A stretch of 25,706 nt of DNA from Promethearchaeota archaeon. Its GTDB lineage: Archaea > Asgardarchaeota > Lokiarchaeia > Sigyniarchaeales > SOKP01. The stretch covers positions 1 through 25,706 of the forward strand of contig RDOE01000049.1 in NCBI GenBank assembly GCA_011364975.1, read 5' to 3'. Position 1 is the first letter of the stretch; every line of letters begins with the position of its first letter. Positions 1-6,274 of the stretch are shown here, in pieces. The notes under the pieces are model-generated. The model made no database searches and was not told the origin of the DNA. It saw only the letters and a list, made by a program, of their open reading frames with translations. Both the position numbers and the translations under genes were made by a program.

Positions 1-375
1 ATTGCTGGACAAAGACCATCCGAGGCTCTCGGGGTCGTTTAACCGCAATTCTACATGCTTCATCGTCCGTATTTTAATGGTGCGGATGGGGCAATATTAG
101 TATTTGATATCACCCGAAGTTCAACATTCAGTAATGTTAACAATTGGTGGCAAACATGTATAAAGTATGCCCTTAGTGGCATCCCAAGAATCTTAATTGG
201 TAATAAGATCGATTTAGAGGAAGAACGCAAAATAATTTTACCTATGGCGGAACACTTAAGCGAAAAATTAAATGCACCTTATTTTGAAACTTCTGCCTTG
301 ACTGGAGAGAATGTAAAGACAATTTTCCAGAAGATAGGTGAATTAGTATATAAATATAAGGAAAATTTTAAATAA
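1..375 (+). CDS. Rab-like small GTPase, 5'-partial, interrupted by a 30-nt putative intron (exons <1..12 and 43..375)
   Basis: Frame 1 reads IAGQ (end of G3 DxxGQ), then 10 extra codons ending in TAA, then PQFYMLHRPYFNGADGAILVFD...GNKID (G4)...ETSAL (G5). The joined sequence AGQPQFYMLHRPYFNGA fits the Rab pattern GQxxFxxLxxxY[YF]xGA. No C-terminal Cys prenylation motif. The ATG at 55 is internal. Confidence 0.9.
13..42 (+). other. Putative bulge-helix-bulge (archaeal tRNA-type) intron in a protein-coding gene
   Basis: Exon stem ATTGC(1-5)/GCAAT(45-49) with a U6-C44 mismatch; 4-bp central helix GGAC(7-10)/GTTT(37-40); 3-nt bulges AAA(11-13) and AAC(41-43); intron stem GACC(14-17)/GGTC(33-36) plus CCGAG(20-24)/CTCGG(28-32). 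Cutting after the 2nd nt of each bulge removes 13-42 and restores the reading frame and motif spacing. Confidence 0.75.
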
Positions 376-559
376 TCTATTTTTACTAACCACTTTCTCA
401 ATTAAATTTGCTCCTAGGTCAATCCTTATCTATTAATTTAATCTTTTATAGTCATCCATTTAATATTCTAAAGCTCAAAAGAAAAAGTGTAACCATAATT
501 TTTACTTATTTTTAGATATTATTAATATCATTGAAAATAGAATTTCTAAGTGATTTTGA

Positions 560-1276
560 TTGATAAAAGCAATAACCTTTGATCTATGGAATACATTATT
601 CGAAACTGTTTCATATTCAGATTTAAGGTTAAATCTTCTCTCTAAATATTTAAAAAAAAGAGGAATCAAAATCCCCCAAACCTCGTTAATCGAGCTATAT
701 AATAACTTTTTTAATTTCATTAATCCTAAGTTTAAAGCTTTACCCCAACATCATGTTTATACAAAGGAAAGAGTTTTCTCCTTATTTGAAGAGTTAGATA
801 TATCCATAAACTCTTTAGAGGTAGATCAAATTGTTAATGGAATTGAAGCTGCGATGCTTGAAAATCCACCAGCCTTGAAAAAGGGAGTAAAAGACACGAT
901 CAGCATTTTAAGTCAGGATTATAAATTAGGCATCATTTCAGATACAGGGATAACTCCGGGGAGAATTATTAGAATAATATTGAAAAAATATGGCATTTTG
1001 AAATTTTTTCTAACAACCATTTTTTCTGACGAAATTGGATATTATAAGCCACATTCAAAAGTTTTTGAAACAGCACTTGACAATTTAAGCTGCCAACCCG
1101 AACATTCTATTCATATAGGAGATCTAATAGAAACTGATATAAAAGGAGCAAAAAATTACAATATGCGTGCTATATGGATAAGTAATTCCCTTCAGATAAA
1201 TAACTTCGATATTCAACCTGATTATAAAATTAACGAGATATCTGAAGTAATAGAAATAGTAAAAAGTATAATTTAA
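560..1276 (+). CDS. HAD-superfamily hydrolase (YjjG/PH0459-like)
   Basis: Motif I FDLWNTL, motif II IISDT, motif III KP, motif IV HIGDLIETDIKGA; TTG start. Confidence 0.9.
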   Translation: MIKAITFDLWNTLFETVSYSDLRLNLLSKYLKKRGIKIPQTSLIELYNNFFNFINPKFKALPQHHVYTKERVFSLFEELDISINSLEVDQIVNGIEAAMLENPPALKKGVKDTISILSQDYKLGIISDTGITPGRIIRIILKKYGILKFFLTTIFSDEIGYYKPHSKVFETALDNLSCQPEHSIHIGDLIETDIKGAKNYNMRAIWISNSLQINNFDIQPDYKINEISEVIEIVKSII

Positions 1277-1295
1277 ATACACAAAAGAATAAGTT

Positions 1296-1946
1296 TTAAT
1301 CTTTAATCATTAATTTATTTATCCAAAAGGTAATTTTCTCATTCAAATGTTCTTCCATTGTACCACTGTCTGGACTATTTTTACTATATAACTCAGATAA
1401 TGTTTCTAATCTATTAAGATGATTAATTGTCTGAGATATTTCATATAATATCCGATGTCCTCCTGTAAATTCAAAAATTTCCTCTTTAATTTTTTCCAAT
1501 ATTGAGACAGCATCTCTTGAACTTTCAATAGTTGATAACTCGGATTTAAAATTACTTAATTGAGAGATGATAGAATCTTTTTTGTCAGTTGCAGATTTAT
1601 CGCGCTCGATTGGCGCTTCTGTCAATTCTGAAACTGCGGTACCAAATCTGAGATTTGTAATTAAAGATCTCAGTAATTCAACCTCTTTTTCTAAATCCTT
1701 TTGATTTTCAATTACATTACTTAACTGAGGAGTTAAACTTTTCACATCTAAAGTTGCTTCATTTAATTCATTAACTTTATCAATTAATTGAGTTATTTTC
1801 AGGTTGGTTTGTCCCATCTTTGTAATAATGTCCAAACCAAACTTTTCTAAAATTGAAGAAAATTTCTCTAATTTTTCTTCAAGATCTTTAAATTTTTCGA
1901 AGATTTTTTCATGAGTTGAATTATTTAACTCTGACATTAGTTTCAT
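1296..1946 (-). CDS. Hypothetical protein, N-terminal coiled coil plus C-terminal helical domain
   Basis: 216-aa ORF filling the gap between neighbours; heptad-like Leu/Ile pattern over the first ~100 aa; no recognisable motif. Confidence 0.75.
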   Translation of the reverse strand: MKLMSELNNSTHEKIFEKFKDLEEKLEKFSSILEKFGLDIITKMGQTNLKITQLIDKVNELNEATLDVKSLTPQLSNVIENQKDLEKEVELLRSLITNLRFGTAVSELTEAPIERDKSATDKKDSIISQLSNFKSELSTIESSRDAVSILEKIKEEIFEFTGGHRILYEISQTINHLNRLETLSELYSKNSPDSGTMEEHLNEKITFWINKLMIKD

Positions 1947-2119
1947 CTAAAAGAGATTTAATTCAAAATATATTTATTATTCTATTGAATGATATGAATG
2001 ATAAATCTTGTAAAAAGATCAATTTTTTATTCCTTTTATATATTAATAAATATAGTACAAAAATATAAAGTCGAGTTTTTGAGTTGTAGATTTTCAGTTA
2101 TAACTAGTGCGTGCTGATA

Positions 2120-3004
2120 ATGATTCAATATATTAATTTATTGACTAGAGATGGTAAATCTCTACTTTTTAGAAATTATGGTACCTCCGATGTCGATCGT
2201 GACTTGCTAGCTGGATTTTTAAGCGCTTTCTCAGGATTCATAAAAGAAATTAGTCAAAGTGATATTAGAAGTACTGCGACAGATGAATTTAAATATTTTT
2301 ATACCGTAATAGATGAGATTATTATCGTTGTATGTGCTGATTTGGATGAAGATGATGCACTAATAAACTCTAAAATAACAACCATCAGAGCTAAATTTAT
2401 CGAAAAATATGGGAAGGTAATTAGCCAAGGTAAGTGGTCAGGTAATAGAGCAATTTTCACGGAATTTGAAAGAGTGCTTGATGATACAATATTAGGCGCA
2501 ATAAAGGTTTCTATAATTGGTGTAGGAGGCGTTGGCAAAACAACTCTATTACATCTTATATGTGGAAAAGATGTAGATTTAGAATATGTGCCTACGATAA
2601 ATGTCGATATCACTAGTTATGATGGAGAGGAGTTGGGAATTCATCGTTCGCTAGTATTATGGGATTTTGCAGGTCAGAAATCATATAGATCCTTATGGAA
2701 AAGCTTGCTTGACAGTACTGATATTGCATTACTCGTTCTAGATTCCAGTTTTGAGAATGTAAGTCAAAGCAAAGAAATTATGAGGGATGTTTTAGATAAG
2801 TATTATAAAAATGTAGTTGTTATTGGAATAGCCAATAAACAAGACTTGCCTAATCGACTCACACCGGAATTTTGTGAGCGAATCTTATCTGAAGCAGAAA
2901 GAAACCCTCCAATTAAGGTATATGGGATGATAGCTATAAAACCAATTTATCGAGAAAAAATTCACGCAATTTTAAGAGATGTAATTAGTAAAATTTCCAA
3001 ATAA
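2120..3004 (+). CDS. Longin-like domain fused to an Arf-related small GTPase
   Basis: N-terminus MIQYINLLTRDGKSLLFRNY...LLAGFLSAFSGF is longin-like. C-terminal half has G1 GVGGVGKT, G2 YVPTI, G3 WDFAGQxxxRxLW and G4 NKQDL. ATG 2120 preferred over GTG 2111. Confidence 0.85.
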   Translation: MIQYINLLTRDGKSLLFRNYGTSDVDRDLLAGFLSAFSGFIKEISQSDIRSTATDEFKYFYTVIDEIIIVVCADLDEDDALINSKITTIRAKFIEKYGKVISQGKWSGNRAIFTEFERVLDDTILGAIKVSIIGVGGVGKTTLLHLICGKDVDLEYVPTINVDITSYDGEELGIHRSLVLWDFAGQKSYRSLWKSLLDSTDIALLVLDSSFENVSQSKEIMRDVLDKYYKNVVVIGIANKQDLPNRLTPEFCERILSEAERNPPIKVYGMIAIKPIYREKIHAILRDVISKISK

Positions 3005-3148
3005 ATATTTTCTTCATCTTAAATTGCAATTATTATCTAAAACTAATTATAATTTAAGGTAATCGGATTTTTGAGTTCAAAAGTAAAAGTTTTATAATTT
3101 TGGAAATTTTTTAGATATAAGCTTGACTTAATAGTCGTGATTTAATTG

Positions 3149-4894
3149 ATGGATTTTAAACTTGAAGAAATTGAAGAGATTGAACGTGAACATGCTAAGA
3201 TTATAAAGTTGCCGCATTTAACTGAAGAAGAGAAGTATTTAATAGATCCAATCGTAGCCCCAACATCAGGATTGAGGATTCAGATCTTAGATGTTATAGA
3301 AAAAAATGGAGTAAAACAGTATTTATTACCAAAAAGAAAGTTATTTCTGTTTTTAAGAGTTTTTAAGGCTATAAGTATATTATATAAAGAACTAAAGAAA
3401 GGAATCAATTTAAAAGTTTTAATTGTTACAGATGATAGACCTACTAAGGACATATTGTTAACATATTGCTCTCAGATATTTGCATACGATTCTTACCAAA
3501 TTTATTATCAAAAAGACGAACCAGGAAAATCAAGAATGTCATCACCTTATGGAGCTGCTTCGGTCGCGCTATTAGAGGAAATTAAATTAACAATTGTATT
3601 AACTGCTTCTCATAACGATTTAACTTGGAATGGAGTTAAGTTTTACATAGACTATCCAATTCCAATGTCAGGTGATATGTTTAAAGATATATCTAAAATT
3701 GCATTAGATCTTAAAGAAATTAATTTGAAAGCGACTTTTAAAACTGAGTTAATTGATATTGAACAAATGAACAATAACTATGTGATTCAGTTATTGTCAA
3801 AGGTTTTGACTTTAGAAAGTATTAAAGAAAGAAATATTGTAATTTGGCCATATTTAGGAAAAGCTAGAGGGATTGTTAACTTATTTCGACAACTTGGAGC
3901 TAAAGTGACTGTAATAGAAGAGGAAATAGACCCTCCAAATCCTATTAAAGAAATTCGAGAAGATAAATTAAAATCGGTTATGGAATCGAATAATTCTACC
4001 ATCGCTTTACTATTGGATGCTGATCGGGACAGAATAGCACTTTATGTGAAGCAAAACGGTAAATACCAATTTTATATTCCGAATGAAATCTATTCTGCTA
4101 TGCATAACATTTTAGCTAAAGAGTATAACAAAAAAATAATTAATGTTAGAACTATCCCTAGCGATTTAAGGGCAGATAATTCAAGCTACATCAATATATT
4201 AACTGGAGTTGGTTATAAACATTTAGGGATTATTTTATATTTCTTACTTGATATTCCTGTAGATCAATCCAAGGTTGATACTGCAATTCTTTATTTTGAA
4301 GATGAAGATAATACTCTAATAAAAATAAAAGAGCCGCAACCTTTAAAAGAAGAATTCTTTAAATTAATGAGTAGGGATGCTTTAAAAGAAGATCAGTTTC
4401 TAATTGTTATGTGGGAGGAATCTGGAGGTCATACGCTTAATGTATTAAATAGTGTATTGAATCAAACAGACCAAGATGTAAAATTTACCACAAGATTTCC
4501 ACTTATTGCTGATAAATATCCTGTTCCTGCGTTAGTATTAGCTACAGAATTAATTGCGAGAGGACATATTATTTCAGAATCTATAGATTGGTCAATCAAA
4601 GGAATTAACAGAACAATTTCTGCTATTGATGAAGAAAAGGTTAAAATCATGAAAAATTTTGAGAAAAATGATAAAAAGTCTATAACAATTAACGGAAAGG
4701 AGTATCACGTTAACGCTTTATCAGATAATAATGGTATTATTGACATATTTCAACTAAAAAGTAATGATTCTACCCTTTATTTCCGACCAAGTGGGACTGG
4801 TCCCGAAGTCCGATTTTATATATTCGGTGCCAAAGAAACTCATTTATCAGAAATAAAAACAGTTCAAAATTTTGTAAAATCTAATTATTCTTAA
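3149..4894 (+). CDS. Alpha-D-phosphohexomutase family protein (PGM/PMM-like), divergent
   Basis: TSGLR, catalytic TASHN, metal loop DADRDR, sugar loop EESGG and phosphate loop RPSGT are all present. Confidence 0.88.
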   Translation: MDFKLEEIEEIEREHAKIIKLPHLTEEEKYLIDPIVAPTSGLRIQILDVIEKNGVKQYLLPKRKLFLFLRVFKAISILYKELKKGINLKVLIVTDDRPTKDILLTYCSQIFAYDSYQIYYQKDEPGKSRMSSPYGAASVALLEEIKLTIVLTASHNDLTWNGVKFYIDYPIPMSGDMFKDISKIALDLKEINLKATFKTELIDIEQMNNNYVIQLLSKVLTLESIKERNIVIWPYLGKARGIVNLFRQLGAKVTVIEEEIDPPNPIKEIREDKLKSVMESNNSTIALLLDADRDRIALYVKQNGKYQFYIPNEIYSAMHNILAKEYNKKIINVRTIPSDLRADNSSYINILTGVGYKHLGIILYFLLDIPVDQSKVDTAILYFEDEDNTLIKIKEPQPLKEEFFKLMSRDALKEDQFLIVMWEESGGHTLNVLNSVLNQTDQDVKFTTRFPLIADKYPVPALVLATELIARGHIISESIDWSIKGINRTISAIDEEKVKIMKNFEKNDKKSITINGKEYHVNALSDNNGIIDIFQLKSNDSTLYFRPSGTGPEVRFYIFGAKETHLSEIKTVQNFVKSNYS

Positions 4895-4999
4895 TCACAA
4901 GATTAATTTCAACTTACAACTAGTTCATATTAAAAATTTAATTGCAATAGAATATTTTCTCTAACTAATTATAATTATATCAATTATACTATTACAAGA

Positions 5000-6274
5000 T
5001 TGGTTTTGACAAAAATTATGCAAGAAAAAATAATTGATGATAAAATCCTTGAAAAAATATCATTGGAAAATGTATTCAAGATTTTTAATGACAATGTTTT
5101 TCCAATGCTAAATGATGAGGAGAAAGCGTATTGCAATGAGCTCCAAACGTTCTGTTTAGACCTTCATCCTAAAATAGATAAATCTAAAGATGTATACATT
5201 CTTTTCCCTGAATTAGGAAAACATGGATACATGCAAAGAATTAATAAATGGAGAGATTTTACACCATACGGCATGAAGAAGGAAATCCTTTTAGGTACCC
5301 ATCTTTCACTTCTTGATCCACAACTCGAATTAGCTCGTTTAGCAAGTGGTATTTTATGCGGAAATCCAACATTTCATTATTATACTCATGGTGGAACTGG
5401 CGATACGATTCAGAAAGTGCAAGATGAGCTAATGTCTGGACAAAAAATAGGATGTATTGGAATAACTGAGCCTGAGAGAGGTTCTGATGCGGTTAATATG
5501 ACAACAGTAGCTACTAAAACAGACGATGGCGTCTTATATAATGGTGAGAAAGTCTATACCACTAATGGGCCAAAAGCCGATTACTTCTGTGCTTATGGAG
5601 TATATAATAAAGAGGATCCGCGAAGTACAATGGTACAAGCCATGATAAAGCGAGAATTTGGGGTTAAAACAGAACGTTTAAAAATCAATTCGGTACCAAG
5701 AGTTCACATTGCTCATACTTTCTTTCAAAACGTAAGGATTCCTAAAGATTATATCTTGGCTGATGATGGATTAGGTTACACTAGATTATTCGAGGGATTA
5801 GTTCCAGAAAGGCTAGGAATTATGGGATCAGGTATAGGAATTTGCTGGTCTGGATTAATCTATGGGATTATCTACACTAACCTAAGGAAGCAATTTGGAA
5901 AGCCTGTAATTAATTATCAAGGTGTTGGGTATGGGCTTGCGGATTTACTAACTAAAGCTACAGCAGCTACAAGCTTAGCTTTACAGTCAGCAACGATTTA
6001 TGATGATAAAATATTGTTTGCAGATAAACCGTCTAAAGAAGCAGAAAAATGGGTTGCAGGTATCTCGTCTCAAGGAAAGTATTACACAGCTAAGCTTACG
6101 CATGATATCTGCTATGAGGTTCAACAGCATATGGGCGGAGTTTCAGTAACTGACAACACACCGGTAGATGAATTAATGGATGTAAGTAAAATCGAAGAAG
6201 TTATCGGTGGGGCCCGAAATATACAACTTCTTCTAATCCAGTCTCAAATTCAAAGATATATGAGACTTCTCTAA
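5000..6274 (+). CDS. Acyl-CoA dehydrogenase
   Basis: ITEPERGSDA, NGEKVYTTNG, RKQFGKPV, QHMGG. Alternative ATG start at 5018. Confidence 0.93.
   Translation: MVLTKIMQEKIIDDKILEKISLENVFKIFNDNVFPMLNDEEKAYCNELQTFCLDLHPKIDKSKDVYILFPELGKHGYMQRINKWRDFTPYGMKKEILLGTHLSLLDPQLELARLASGILCGNPTFHYYTHGGTGDTIQKVQDELMSGQKIGCIGITEPERGSDAVNMTTVATKTDDGVLYNGEKVYTTNGPKADYFCAYGVYNKEDPRSTMVQAMIKREFGVKTERLKINSVPRVHIAHTFFQNVRIPKDYILADDGLGYTRLFEGLVPERLGIMGSGIGICWSGLIYGIIYTNLRKQFGKPVINYQGVGYGLADLLTKATAATSLALQSATIYDDKILFADKPSKEAEKWVAGISSQGKYYTAKLTHDICYEVQQHMGGVSVTDNTPVDELMDVSKIEEVIGGARNIQLLLIQSQIQRYMRLL

Follow-up and report, generated by a model that had tools for sequence, protein, structure and literature searches.

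A putative bulge-helix-bulge intron within the coding region of a Rab-like GTPase gene in an Asgard archaeon

How can a small GTPase be made from a gene whose reading frame is closed by a stop codon directly behind its G3 motif? The question is raised by the first letters of contig RDOE01000049.1 (NCBI GenBank assembly GCA_011364975.1) from a Promethearchaeota archaeon (Asgardarchaeota; Lokiarchaeia; Sigyniarchaeales). By the window we mean this whole stretch of 25,706 nucleotides (nt). It is contig C150 of the genome that we call G000 (3.74 Mb in 200 contigs, 30.6% G+C, rated 99% complete), and it starts at base 1 of that contig. Read in frame 1, window positions 1-375 give IAGQ, then RPSEALGVV and a stop, then PQFYMLHRPYFNGADG and onwards through NKID and ETSA to a second stop at 373-375. 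The intervening 30 nt, positions 13-42 with TAA in frame at 40-42, lie between the IAGQ and PQFYML codons of a Ras/Rab-family GTPase, immediately behind the codon for Gln in the G3 motif WDxAGQ.

A first-pass annotation, made from the letters of the window, proposed that these 30 nt are an archaeal bulge-helix-bulge (BHB) intron. Comparison with related sequences leads us to think that this is very probably correct and that the insert is removed from the GTPase message by splicing of the tRNA type. The proposed mechanism is as follows. Exon nucleotides 7-10 (a Gly codon and the first base of the Gln codon) would pair with intron nucleotides 37-40 to form a central helix of 4 bp. This helix would be flanked on one side by a helix between the two exons (1-5/45-49) and on the other by a hairpin within the intron (14-36), leaving two bulges of 3 nt (11-13 and 41-43). 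A two-subunit EndA would cut after the second base of each bulge, at 12/13 and 42/43, and RtcB would join the exons, so that the message would read WDIAGQ/PQFYML (the slash marks the junction) and encode a complete GTPase with some 186 residues. The intron, of 30 nt, would be released, probably as a circle. If the message were left unspliced, translation would end at the TAA and only a fragment with G1 to G3 would be made.

The interrupted gene and the fold of its insert

The part of the gene downstream of the insert matches the Pfam Ras family (PF00071) over profile positions 60-160 (E 9.4e-26), beginning just past the G3 motif, and an uninterrupted orthologue matches positions 1-160 (E 1.2e-46). 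Close relatives are named 'Rab family GTPase' at NCBI. The insert itself has the sequence that the first-pass annotation quoted, including the stop codon, and with 17 of its 30 nt G+C (57%) it stands out against a genome of 30.6% G+C. It shares no 14-mer with any other part of G000 and has no Rfam match at an E-value of 1 or less, so that a copy of a repeat or mobile element is ruled out. G000 contains 71 Ras-family matches, which agrees with its assignment to the Asgard archaea; among the other 70 none has an internal stop, except one fragment at a contig end, and the next-best paralogue of the host gene is 44% identical to it.

An intact open frame with G1 and WD had been expected just upstream of the window, and such a frame is found in a metagenome contig, L056. 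This contig (9.3 kb) is 97.5% identical to window positions 1-6099, extends 3.2 kb further upstream, and has the same insert apart from one substitution in the hairpin loop. Its exon 1 (3014-3241) is intact: it begins with TTG, contains GDPAVGKT, PTVG and WDIAGQ, and covers positions 1-58 of the Ras profile. Over exon 2 the window and L056 encode the same 110 residues with nine synonymous and no non-synonymous differences. Taken together, exon 1 of L056 (G1 to G3) and exon 2 of the window (the rest) supply G1 to G5 and the whole Ras profile. The 5' half of the host gene was not found on other contigs of G000, where tblastn with the N-terminus of an orthologue returned paralogues only (best 47%).

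The N-terminal part of a GTPase that runs off the beginning of contig C102 (G000:C102:1-420, minus strand) was considered as the missing partner and is ruled out by its degenerate P-loop (GKKGVGIS, with no Lys) and by IWT in place of IWD. Another N-terminal GTPase fragment is located at G000:C121:20500-20664 (minus strand). It comprises G1 and G2 (Ras profile positions 1-53), stops after KFQIYRN and is followed by an unrelated membrane-like open reading frame (ORF); it looks like the remnant of a truncated gene.

All the pairings claimed in the first-pass annotation are present in the window, as are the imperfections that it pointed out (we return to these below). The intron hairpin consists of 9 bp, four and five, separated by a 2-nt bulge. 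Folding of positions 1-54 gives a minimum free energy (MFE) of -16.9 kcal/mol (z = -2.51), and 3 of 200 shuffled sequences are as stable. By itself the window sequence is only moderately convincing as evidence of a BHB motif; the question whether the motif is more than chance is decided by its relatives.

Inserts at the same site and elsewhere in relatives

We searched metagenome contigs and a set of genomes, one per species, with the degenerate pattern WDxAGQ-N(9-39)-PQFYM. Inserts at exactly the site of the window are found at 20 other loci, 15 on metagenome contigs and five in genomes, and some of these lie inside contigs of up to 111 kb. Counting the window, the series comprises 14 different insert sequences, of which nine measure 30 nt, four 31 nt and one 33 nt, and each of the 14 brings an in-frame stop or a frameshift. 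The five genomes all belong to the family of the window and represent three genera, in which inserts occur in 1 of 41, 1 of 1 and 3 of 54 genomes. One of them, G016, is a congener and has a 30-nt insert of different sequence in the same place. Orthologues in the genus of the window are 78-87% identical over exon 2, and 18 of the 19 best loci read WD[VIL]AGQ/PQFYML without interruption. Across the family, the uninterrupted junction pattern occurs in 109 of 135 genomes (117 copies). No uninterrupted copy was found in the five insert-bearing genomes or in G000; therefore the interrupted gene is, in these organisms, the sole copy of a gene that is kept by at least 115 of the 135 family members.

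Do these inserts share a BHB geometry? We took the register from the tRNA paradigm. In this register the central helix, H, pairs exon positions -6 to -3 with intron positions -6 to -3. Bulge 1 consists of the last two exon bases and the first intron base, and bulge 2 of the last two intron bases and the first base of exon 2. The intron helix h' starts at intron positions +2/-7 and the exon-exon helix h at exon positions -7/+2. All 15 distinct rows of the comparison fit, with H paired at four of four positions in ten rows and at three of four in five. If both bulges are cut behind their second base, GQ/PQF is restored in all 14 variants, including the four of 31 nt that otherwise shift the frame, so the cut rule applied earlier to the window alone gives an in-frame junction throughout the series.

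Covariation was measured on a MAFFT alignment, with controls in which the 3' partners were slid by one to three columns and with 500 shuffles. Pairing is kept in 84% of 225 cells versus 21.8-44.0% in the slid controls, and 33 cells are changed on both sides versus 4-12; none of the 500 shuffles reached the observed score. The expectation that orthologous inserts would preserve the pairing by compensatory changes is thus borne out. Such changes occur in all five outer pairs of h'. Helix H (helix 2) has 91.7% of its cells paired, and its pair 9/41 occurs as A-U, G-C and U-A; for helix h the figure is 77.8%. RNAalifold, given no structure, recovers H, a 3-nt bulge and h'.

The most telling pair is the one between the third base of the Gly codon and intron position -5 (A-U in 11 rows, G-C in one, U-A in one, unpaired in two), because here a synonymous exon site covaries with the intron, as only a central helix of the BHB type predicts. 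A second exon signal lies beyond the junction. Of the 15 intron-bearing rows, 13 have CCG as the Pro codon, versus 21 of 117 uninterrupted junctions (a hand count, in which relatedness inflates the contrast). The G of this codon pairs in helix h (pair 5/48), closing it beside bulge 2, and the excess is in the predicted direction. What the series displays is two 3-nt bulges separated by a 4-bp helix, the helices h and h' on either side, cuts that would be productive, and covariation.

Inserts are not confined to this site. At locus L072 (G059:C2, plus strand, 3943-3980) a second insert, of 38 nt, lies 30 nt downstream of the first at PY/FNGADG, with H paired 4/4, h' 8/8 and h 5/6. Locus L060 has a second insert of 32 nt in exon 1 (about 2298-2329) in phase 1; the BHB rule there splits an Asn codon and gives PTVGV/NIVKE, the consensus of orthologues. 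Among the deletions that restore the L060 frame, the BHB register scores 14 and is tied at the top with another, of 71 nt, by which conserved residues would be lost. A Ras-profile search of G059 revealed two more interrupted GTPase paralogues. One (L081, G059:C62:11100-12400, minus strand) has a 30-nt insert at WD/IGGQ with H 4/4 and h' 8/8. The other (L082, G059:C13:11000-12300, minus strand) has a 32-nt insert at GQ/SQF, the same site in a paralogue, and another of about 30 nt at RYI/KDYF with a weaker motif (H 3/4). G059 thus has five inserts in three GTPase genes, and in the five further inserts (L072, L060, L081 and two in L082) the BHB cut rule restores canonical motifs.

The same genome has one more unusual GTPase. 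At L083 (G059:C34:6100-7400, minus strand) a single open frame encodes G3 to G5 (LWDTGGQ ... NKSD ... ETSA) and then G1 and G2 (GAAAVGKSS ... TVGLDF); the protein is either a circular permutation of a GTPase or the product of a tandem fusion.

Selection and rival explanations

The first alternative to consider is that the gene is dead: the insert would be an inactivating scar in a pseudogene, and the hairpin incidental. The stop codon is in frame, the 5' half is absent from the assembly, and close relatives have uninterrupted alleles, all of which such a reading would explain. The exons, however, do not behave like those of a pseudogene. They are intact in 18 of 21 insert-bearing loci. Two of the exceptions, L072 and L060, are broken by one second insert each. 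The third, L069, is a metagenome contig of 1470 nt in which exon 2 becomes unrelated sequence after LLVFD, probably through chimeric assembly or an insertion. The ratio of non-synonymous to synonymous substitution rates (dN/dS) between insert-bearing genes is 0.035-0.126 for exons 1 and 2 (10 of 18 exon comparisons, those in which dS is unsaturated), and judged by these ratios both exons are under purifying selection. Left out of this comparison and of the tree described below were L069 (the probable chimera), L051 and L075 (both identical to L063), L064, L066, L067 and L068 (partial, or duplicates of L065 and L057), and the window, which has exon 2 only. The window and L056 differ, as mentioned, at synonymous sites alone. 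Inserts of 30, 31 and 33 nt in three genera hold a common fold by compensatory changes, and the insert-bearing genomes have no other copy of this gene, which is found in at least 115 of 135 genomes of the family. We consider a dead gene very unlikely.

Another suggestion is that the RNA stays uncut and the ribosome hops over the insert. Translational bypassing is known from gene 60 of phage T4 and from the 'byp' elements of yeast mitochondria. A short gap with a stop codon and a hairpin is what bypassing would need, and in L059, L060 and L069 the last triplet of the insert equals the take-off codon, CAA. In 11 of the 14 distinct variants, however, this triplet is neither CAA nor CAG. Bypassing also gives no account of two 3-nt bulges 4 bp apart, of the way in which the Gly codon covaries with the intron, or of the exon-exon helix, and the five inserts at other places have different flanking codons and yet the same BHB geometry. 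This explanation is highly improbable in our opinion.

If the gene were split, G1 to G3 with a tail of nine residues would be one polypeptide, a second would start at ATG 55-57, and the two would assemble into a GTPase. An ATG-started ORF does occupy positions 55-375, and a gene caller made a protein of 106 amino acids (P0013) from a related contig. This ATG is no special start, since it encodes the conserved Met of PQFYML and is equally present in the 117 uninterrupted junctions. The PQFY codons before the Met are conserved in insert-bearing genes, and the BHB covariation would have no role if the halves were translated separately. The chance that the gene works in this way appears to be very slight. 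P0013 is better seen as an example of what happens in annotation, where gene callers split or truncate interrupted genes.

That the G+C-rich 30 nt are the chimeric end of a contig is suggested by their distance of 12 nt from that end; it is practically negligible as an explanation, since the same insert lies mid-contig in the independent L056 and homologous inserts lie inside long contigs. Contigs from four DNA runs (X1, X2, X3 and X8) map to L056:2800-3800 and leave the insert region (3174-3275) uncovered, so that they neither confirm nor deny the insert. A loose contig end in X3 has an uninterrupted WDIAGQ/PQ junction and comes from another organism. That the stop is read through, or the insert translated, is ruled out by the 31-nt variants, by multiple stops in some inserts and by the lack of conservation of the insert peptides.

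Several observations weigh against a spliced BHB intron and have to be set beside those in its favour. The 20 sequencing runs listed for the locus (L056:1-9329), from seven studies, include none of RNA, so that splicing, the positions of the cuts and a circular form of the intron all have to be inferred. In the window U6 and C44 are unpaired, and H contains two G-U pairs. The strict BHB conformer, at -13.3 kcal/mol, is 3.6 kcal/mol above the MFE structure, which pairs AAA 11-13 with UUU 38-40. The assembly begins only 12 nt before the end of exon 1, and thus the integrity of exon 1 in the strain of the window rests on L056. An uninterrupted protein from other assemblies, P0001, is identical to exon 2 of the window at 110 of 110 residues; hence the intron is dispensable and its presence polymorphic among close relatives.

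The genome as a whole adds no further support. We scanned it for BHB motifs joined to open frames (H 4/4, h' 4/4, h at least 4/5, intron of 12-120 nt). There are 294 matches in G000 versus 248-298 in ten controls with shifted cuts, hence no excess, and alignments to paralogues that span the junction number 5 versus 4-7. As far as such a crude scan can tell, the window intron stands alone in G000. In 400 kb of G059 the scan gave 69 matches versus 59-70 in controls and missed a known two-intron gene on L098. Because its background is high and its sensitivity low, the genome-wide scan decides nothing either way. Even with these points counted, a BHB intron is the explanation that we prefer.

History, splicing machinery and known systems

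When was the intron acquired? A tree built from the proteins of 14 genes with inserts and 21 without interruption contains two all-intron clades outside the genus of the window, and in addition the lineage of G016, that of the window (represented by L056) and L072. The G016 gene is sister to an uninterrupted gene with support of 99/99. At least three changes of state are needed, two of them forced by well-supported branches. The inserts have in common their position, their length class, an apical GAG...CUC stem and a 3' end of the type G-U-Y-Y-A-A, and because they share these features one old gain followed by several precise losses is the simplest reading, in line with what has been proposed for cbf5. 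The intron would then be old in the family: inserts homologous to it by position and 3' end are present in two or more other genera, and most lineages would have lost it precisely.

P0001 equals L056 at 45 of 45 residues over GRTES...NIVKE, yet in the stretch of 21 residues that immediately precedes the intron site the two differ at 11 (a comparison of protein sequences). Recombination that added or removed the intron is one possibility for how this local mosaic arose.

Does the organism have the enzymes? G000 encodes two proteins of the EndA family, of 200 and 205 amino acids (C126:33135-33734 and C191:47632-48246), each with an N-terminal and a catalytic-type C-terminal endonuclease domain, and one RtcB, on C124. 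By eye, the C126 product keeps the Tyr, His and Lys positions, which we take to be the catalytic triad, and the C191 product is without the Tyr and the His. According to passages of PMC5829648, Asgard EndA is an (alpha-beta)2 enzyme with a broad-specificity L1 loop, which is tied to relaxed BHB recognition; two different subunits in G000 would fit such an enzyme. Aragorn reports 24 tRNA genes in G000, nine of them with introns. Many others were probably missed by the program, owing to non-canonical or multiple introns. The suggestion that a gene for a eukaryotic-signature protein undergoes tRNA-type mRNA splicing is thus supported by comparison among relatives, in an organism that encodes two EndA proteins and RtcB.

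The features of the interrupted gene are collected in Table 1. A second small GTPase gene lies 1.7 kb downstream (window 2111-3004, plus strand, 297 amino acids). It encodes an Arf/Ras-type domain (GVGGVGKTT, WDFAGQ) preceded by about 130 N-terminal residues without a Pfam match. Between the two GTPase genes are a HAD hydrolase gene (560-1276) and an unannotated ORF of 216 amino acids on the minus strand (1296-1946). With regard to the borders given in the table, deletion of 11-40 or 12-41 gives the same spliced sequence as deletion of 13-42, because AA is repeated at both borders.

Table 1. Features of the interrupted GTPase gene in the window
Feature	Position	Strand	Basis
End of exon 1, codons I-A-G-Q of G3 (DxxGQ)	1-12	+	Sequence; full exon 1 seen in L056:3014-3241
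Exon-exon helix h	5' strand 1-5, 3' strand 45-49	+	Sequence pairing
Predicted 5' cut	12/13	+	First two bases of bulge 1 are nt 11-12
Candidate BHB intron, 30 nt, TAA at 40-42	13-42	+	Same site as 13 other distinct inserts of 30-33 nt
Intron-intron helix h'	14-36 (14-17/33-36, 20-24/28-32; AU bulge 18-19; loop 25-27)	+	Pairing, covariation, RNAalifold
Central helix H, 3' strand GUUU	37-40	+	Pairs with exon 7-10 (GGAC)
Bulge 2, AAC; predicted 3' cut at 42/43	41-43	+	Cut rule in passages of PMC2738675
Exon 2, 110 codons (PQFYMLHRPYFNGADG ... NKID ... ETSA ... KENFK) and stop 373-375	43-375	+	Ras PF00071 positions 60-160

Splicing of mRNA of this kind is rare in archaea. The mechanism is that of the known archaeal BHB pathway, and its nearest precedent comes from Crenarchaeota, where the pre-mRNA of cbf5, the gene for a pseudouridine synthase, has a BHB intron (Watanabe et al. 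2002; Yoshinari et al. 2006; Yokobori et al. 2009, PMC2738675). Passages of the last of these papers place the cbf5 cuts between the second and third base of each bulge. The cbf5 intron resembles the GTPase case in many respects: a short intron in a coding region, a BHB-like motif with predicted cuts between bulge bases 2 and 3, a hetero-oligomeric EndA of relaxed specificity, a patchy distribution that is explained by gain and secondary loss, and a site that coincides with or adjoins a codon for a catalytic residue (Asp in the case of Cbf5; in the GTPase the intron follows the Gln of G3 directly). There are differences too. The host gene here encodes a Ras/Rab-family GTPase, a eukaryotic-signature protein, in the Asgard phylum; introns in its relatives occupy several positions, with up to two per gene; and splicing of the GTPase message is predicted from DNA sequence, whereas that of cbf5 was shown by cDNA and by cleavage in vitro.

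Another mRNA substrate of the tRNA-splicing endonuclease is HVO_1309 of Haloferax volcanii, whose BHB intron, according to passages of PMC7714728, lies in the 5' untranslated region. There the intron is in an untranslated leader and leaves the frame uninterrupted, the host is a euryarchaeon and the enzyme a homodimer. The BHB introns of tRNA genes share with the GTPase intron their motif, their size range, the presumed enzymes and a history of repeated gains and losses. The RNA is different: here it is a translated mRNA, so that splicing would compete with ribosomes and decide whether the protein is made.

Passages of PMC7714728 from 2020 name one protein-coding family with in-frame BHB introns, crenarchaeal cbf5, besides the Haloferax case, and a 2023 review states that evidence for introns of the eukaryotic kind is lacking in the protein-coding RNAs of archaea (PMC10732040). 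The first-pass annotation knew of no such intron in an Asgard small GTPase, and our full-text literature searches likewise found no report of a BHB intron in a GTPase of any kind or in another protein-coding gene of Asgard archaea; supplements of the cited papers may list further mRNA substrates. The GTPase would therefore be a second host family for in-frame BHB introns, Asgard and eukaryotic in signature, represented by 14 variants at a single site and by five inserts elsewhere. The comparative series provides substrates for learning how a broad-specificity EndA finds mRNA, how splicing proceeds amid coupled transcription and translation, and how introns are gained and precisely lost. We consider the finding highly relevant to the study of RNA in archaea and to the debate on how introns arose.

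A more speculative suggestion can be made regarding what such splicing might be for. The known inserts occupy no fewer than five positions and are spread over three or more small-GTPase genes, some of which have two. It is possible, and we put it forward tentatively and with some doubt, that tRNA-type splicing of mRNA is recurrent and evolutionarily active in this Asgard family and that it may gate production of the GTPase. It could do so because a message left unspliced would give rise to no more than a truncated product with G1 to G3. In HAC1 and XBP1 an endonuclease cuts stem-loops in a coding mRNA without a spliceosome, tRNA ligase (RtcB in animals) joins the exons, and the protein is altered. 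The GTPase intron would be alike in all three respects: a spliceosome-independent cut in a coding mRNA, joining by a tRNA ligase and a changed protein outcome. The link between RtcB and HAC1 is cited among the references of PMC5829648. The endonuclease of HAC1/XBP1 is Ire1 and not EndA/TSEN, and splicing there is regulated by stress, whereas no regulation is known for the GTPase intron. If the gating suggestion is correct, the closest prokaryotic relatives of eukaryotes would possess an archaeal counterpart of regulated splicing of the HAC1/XBP1 type.

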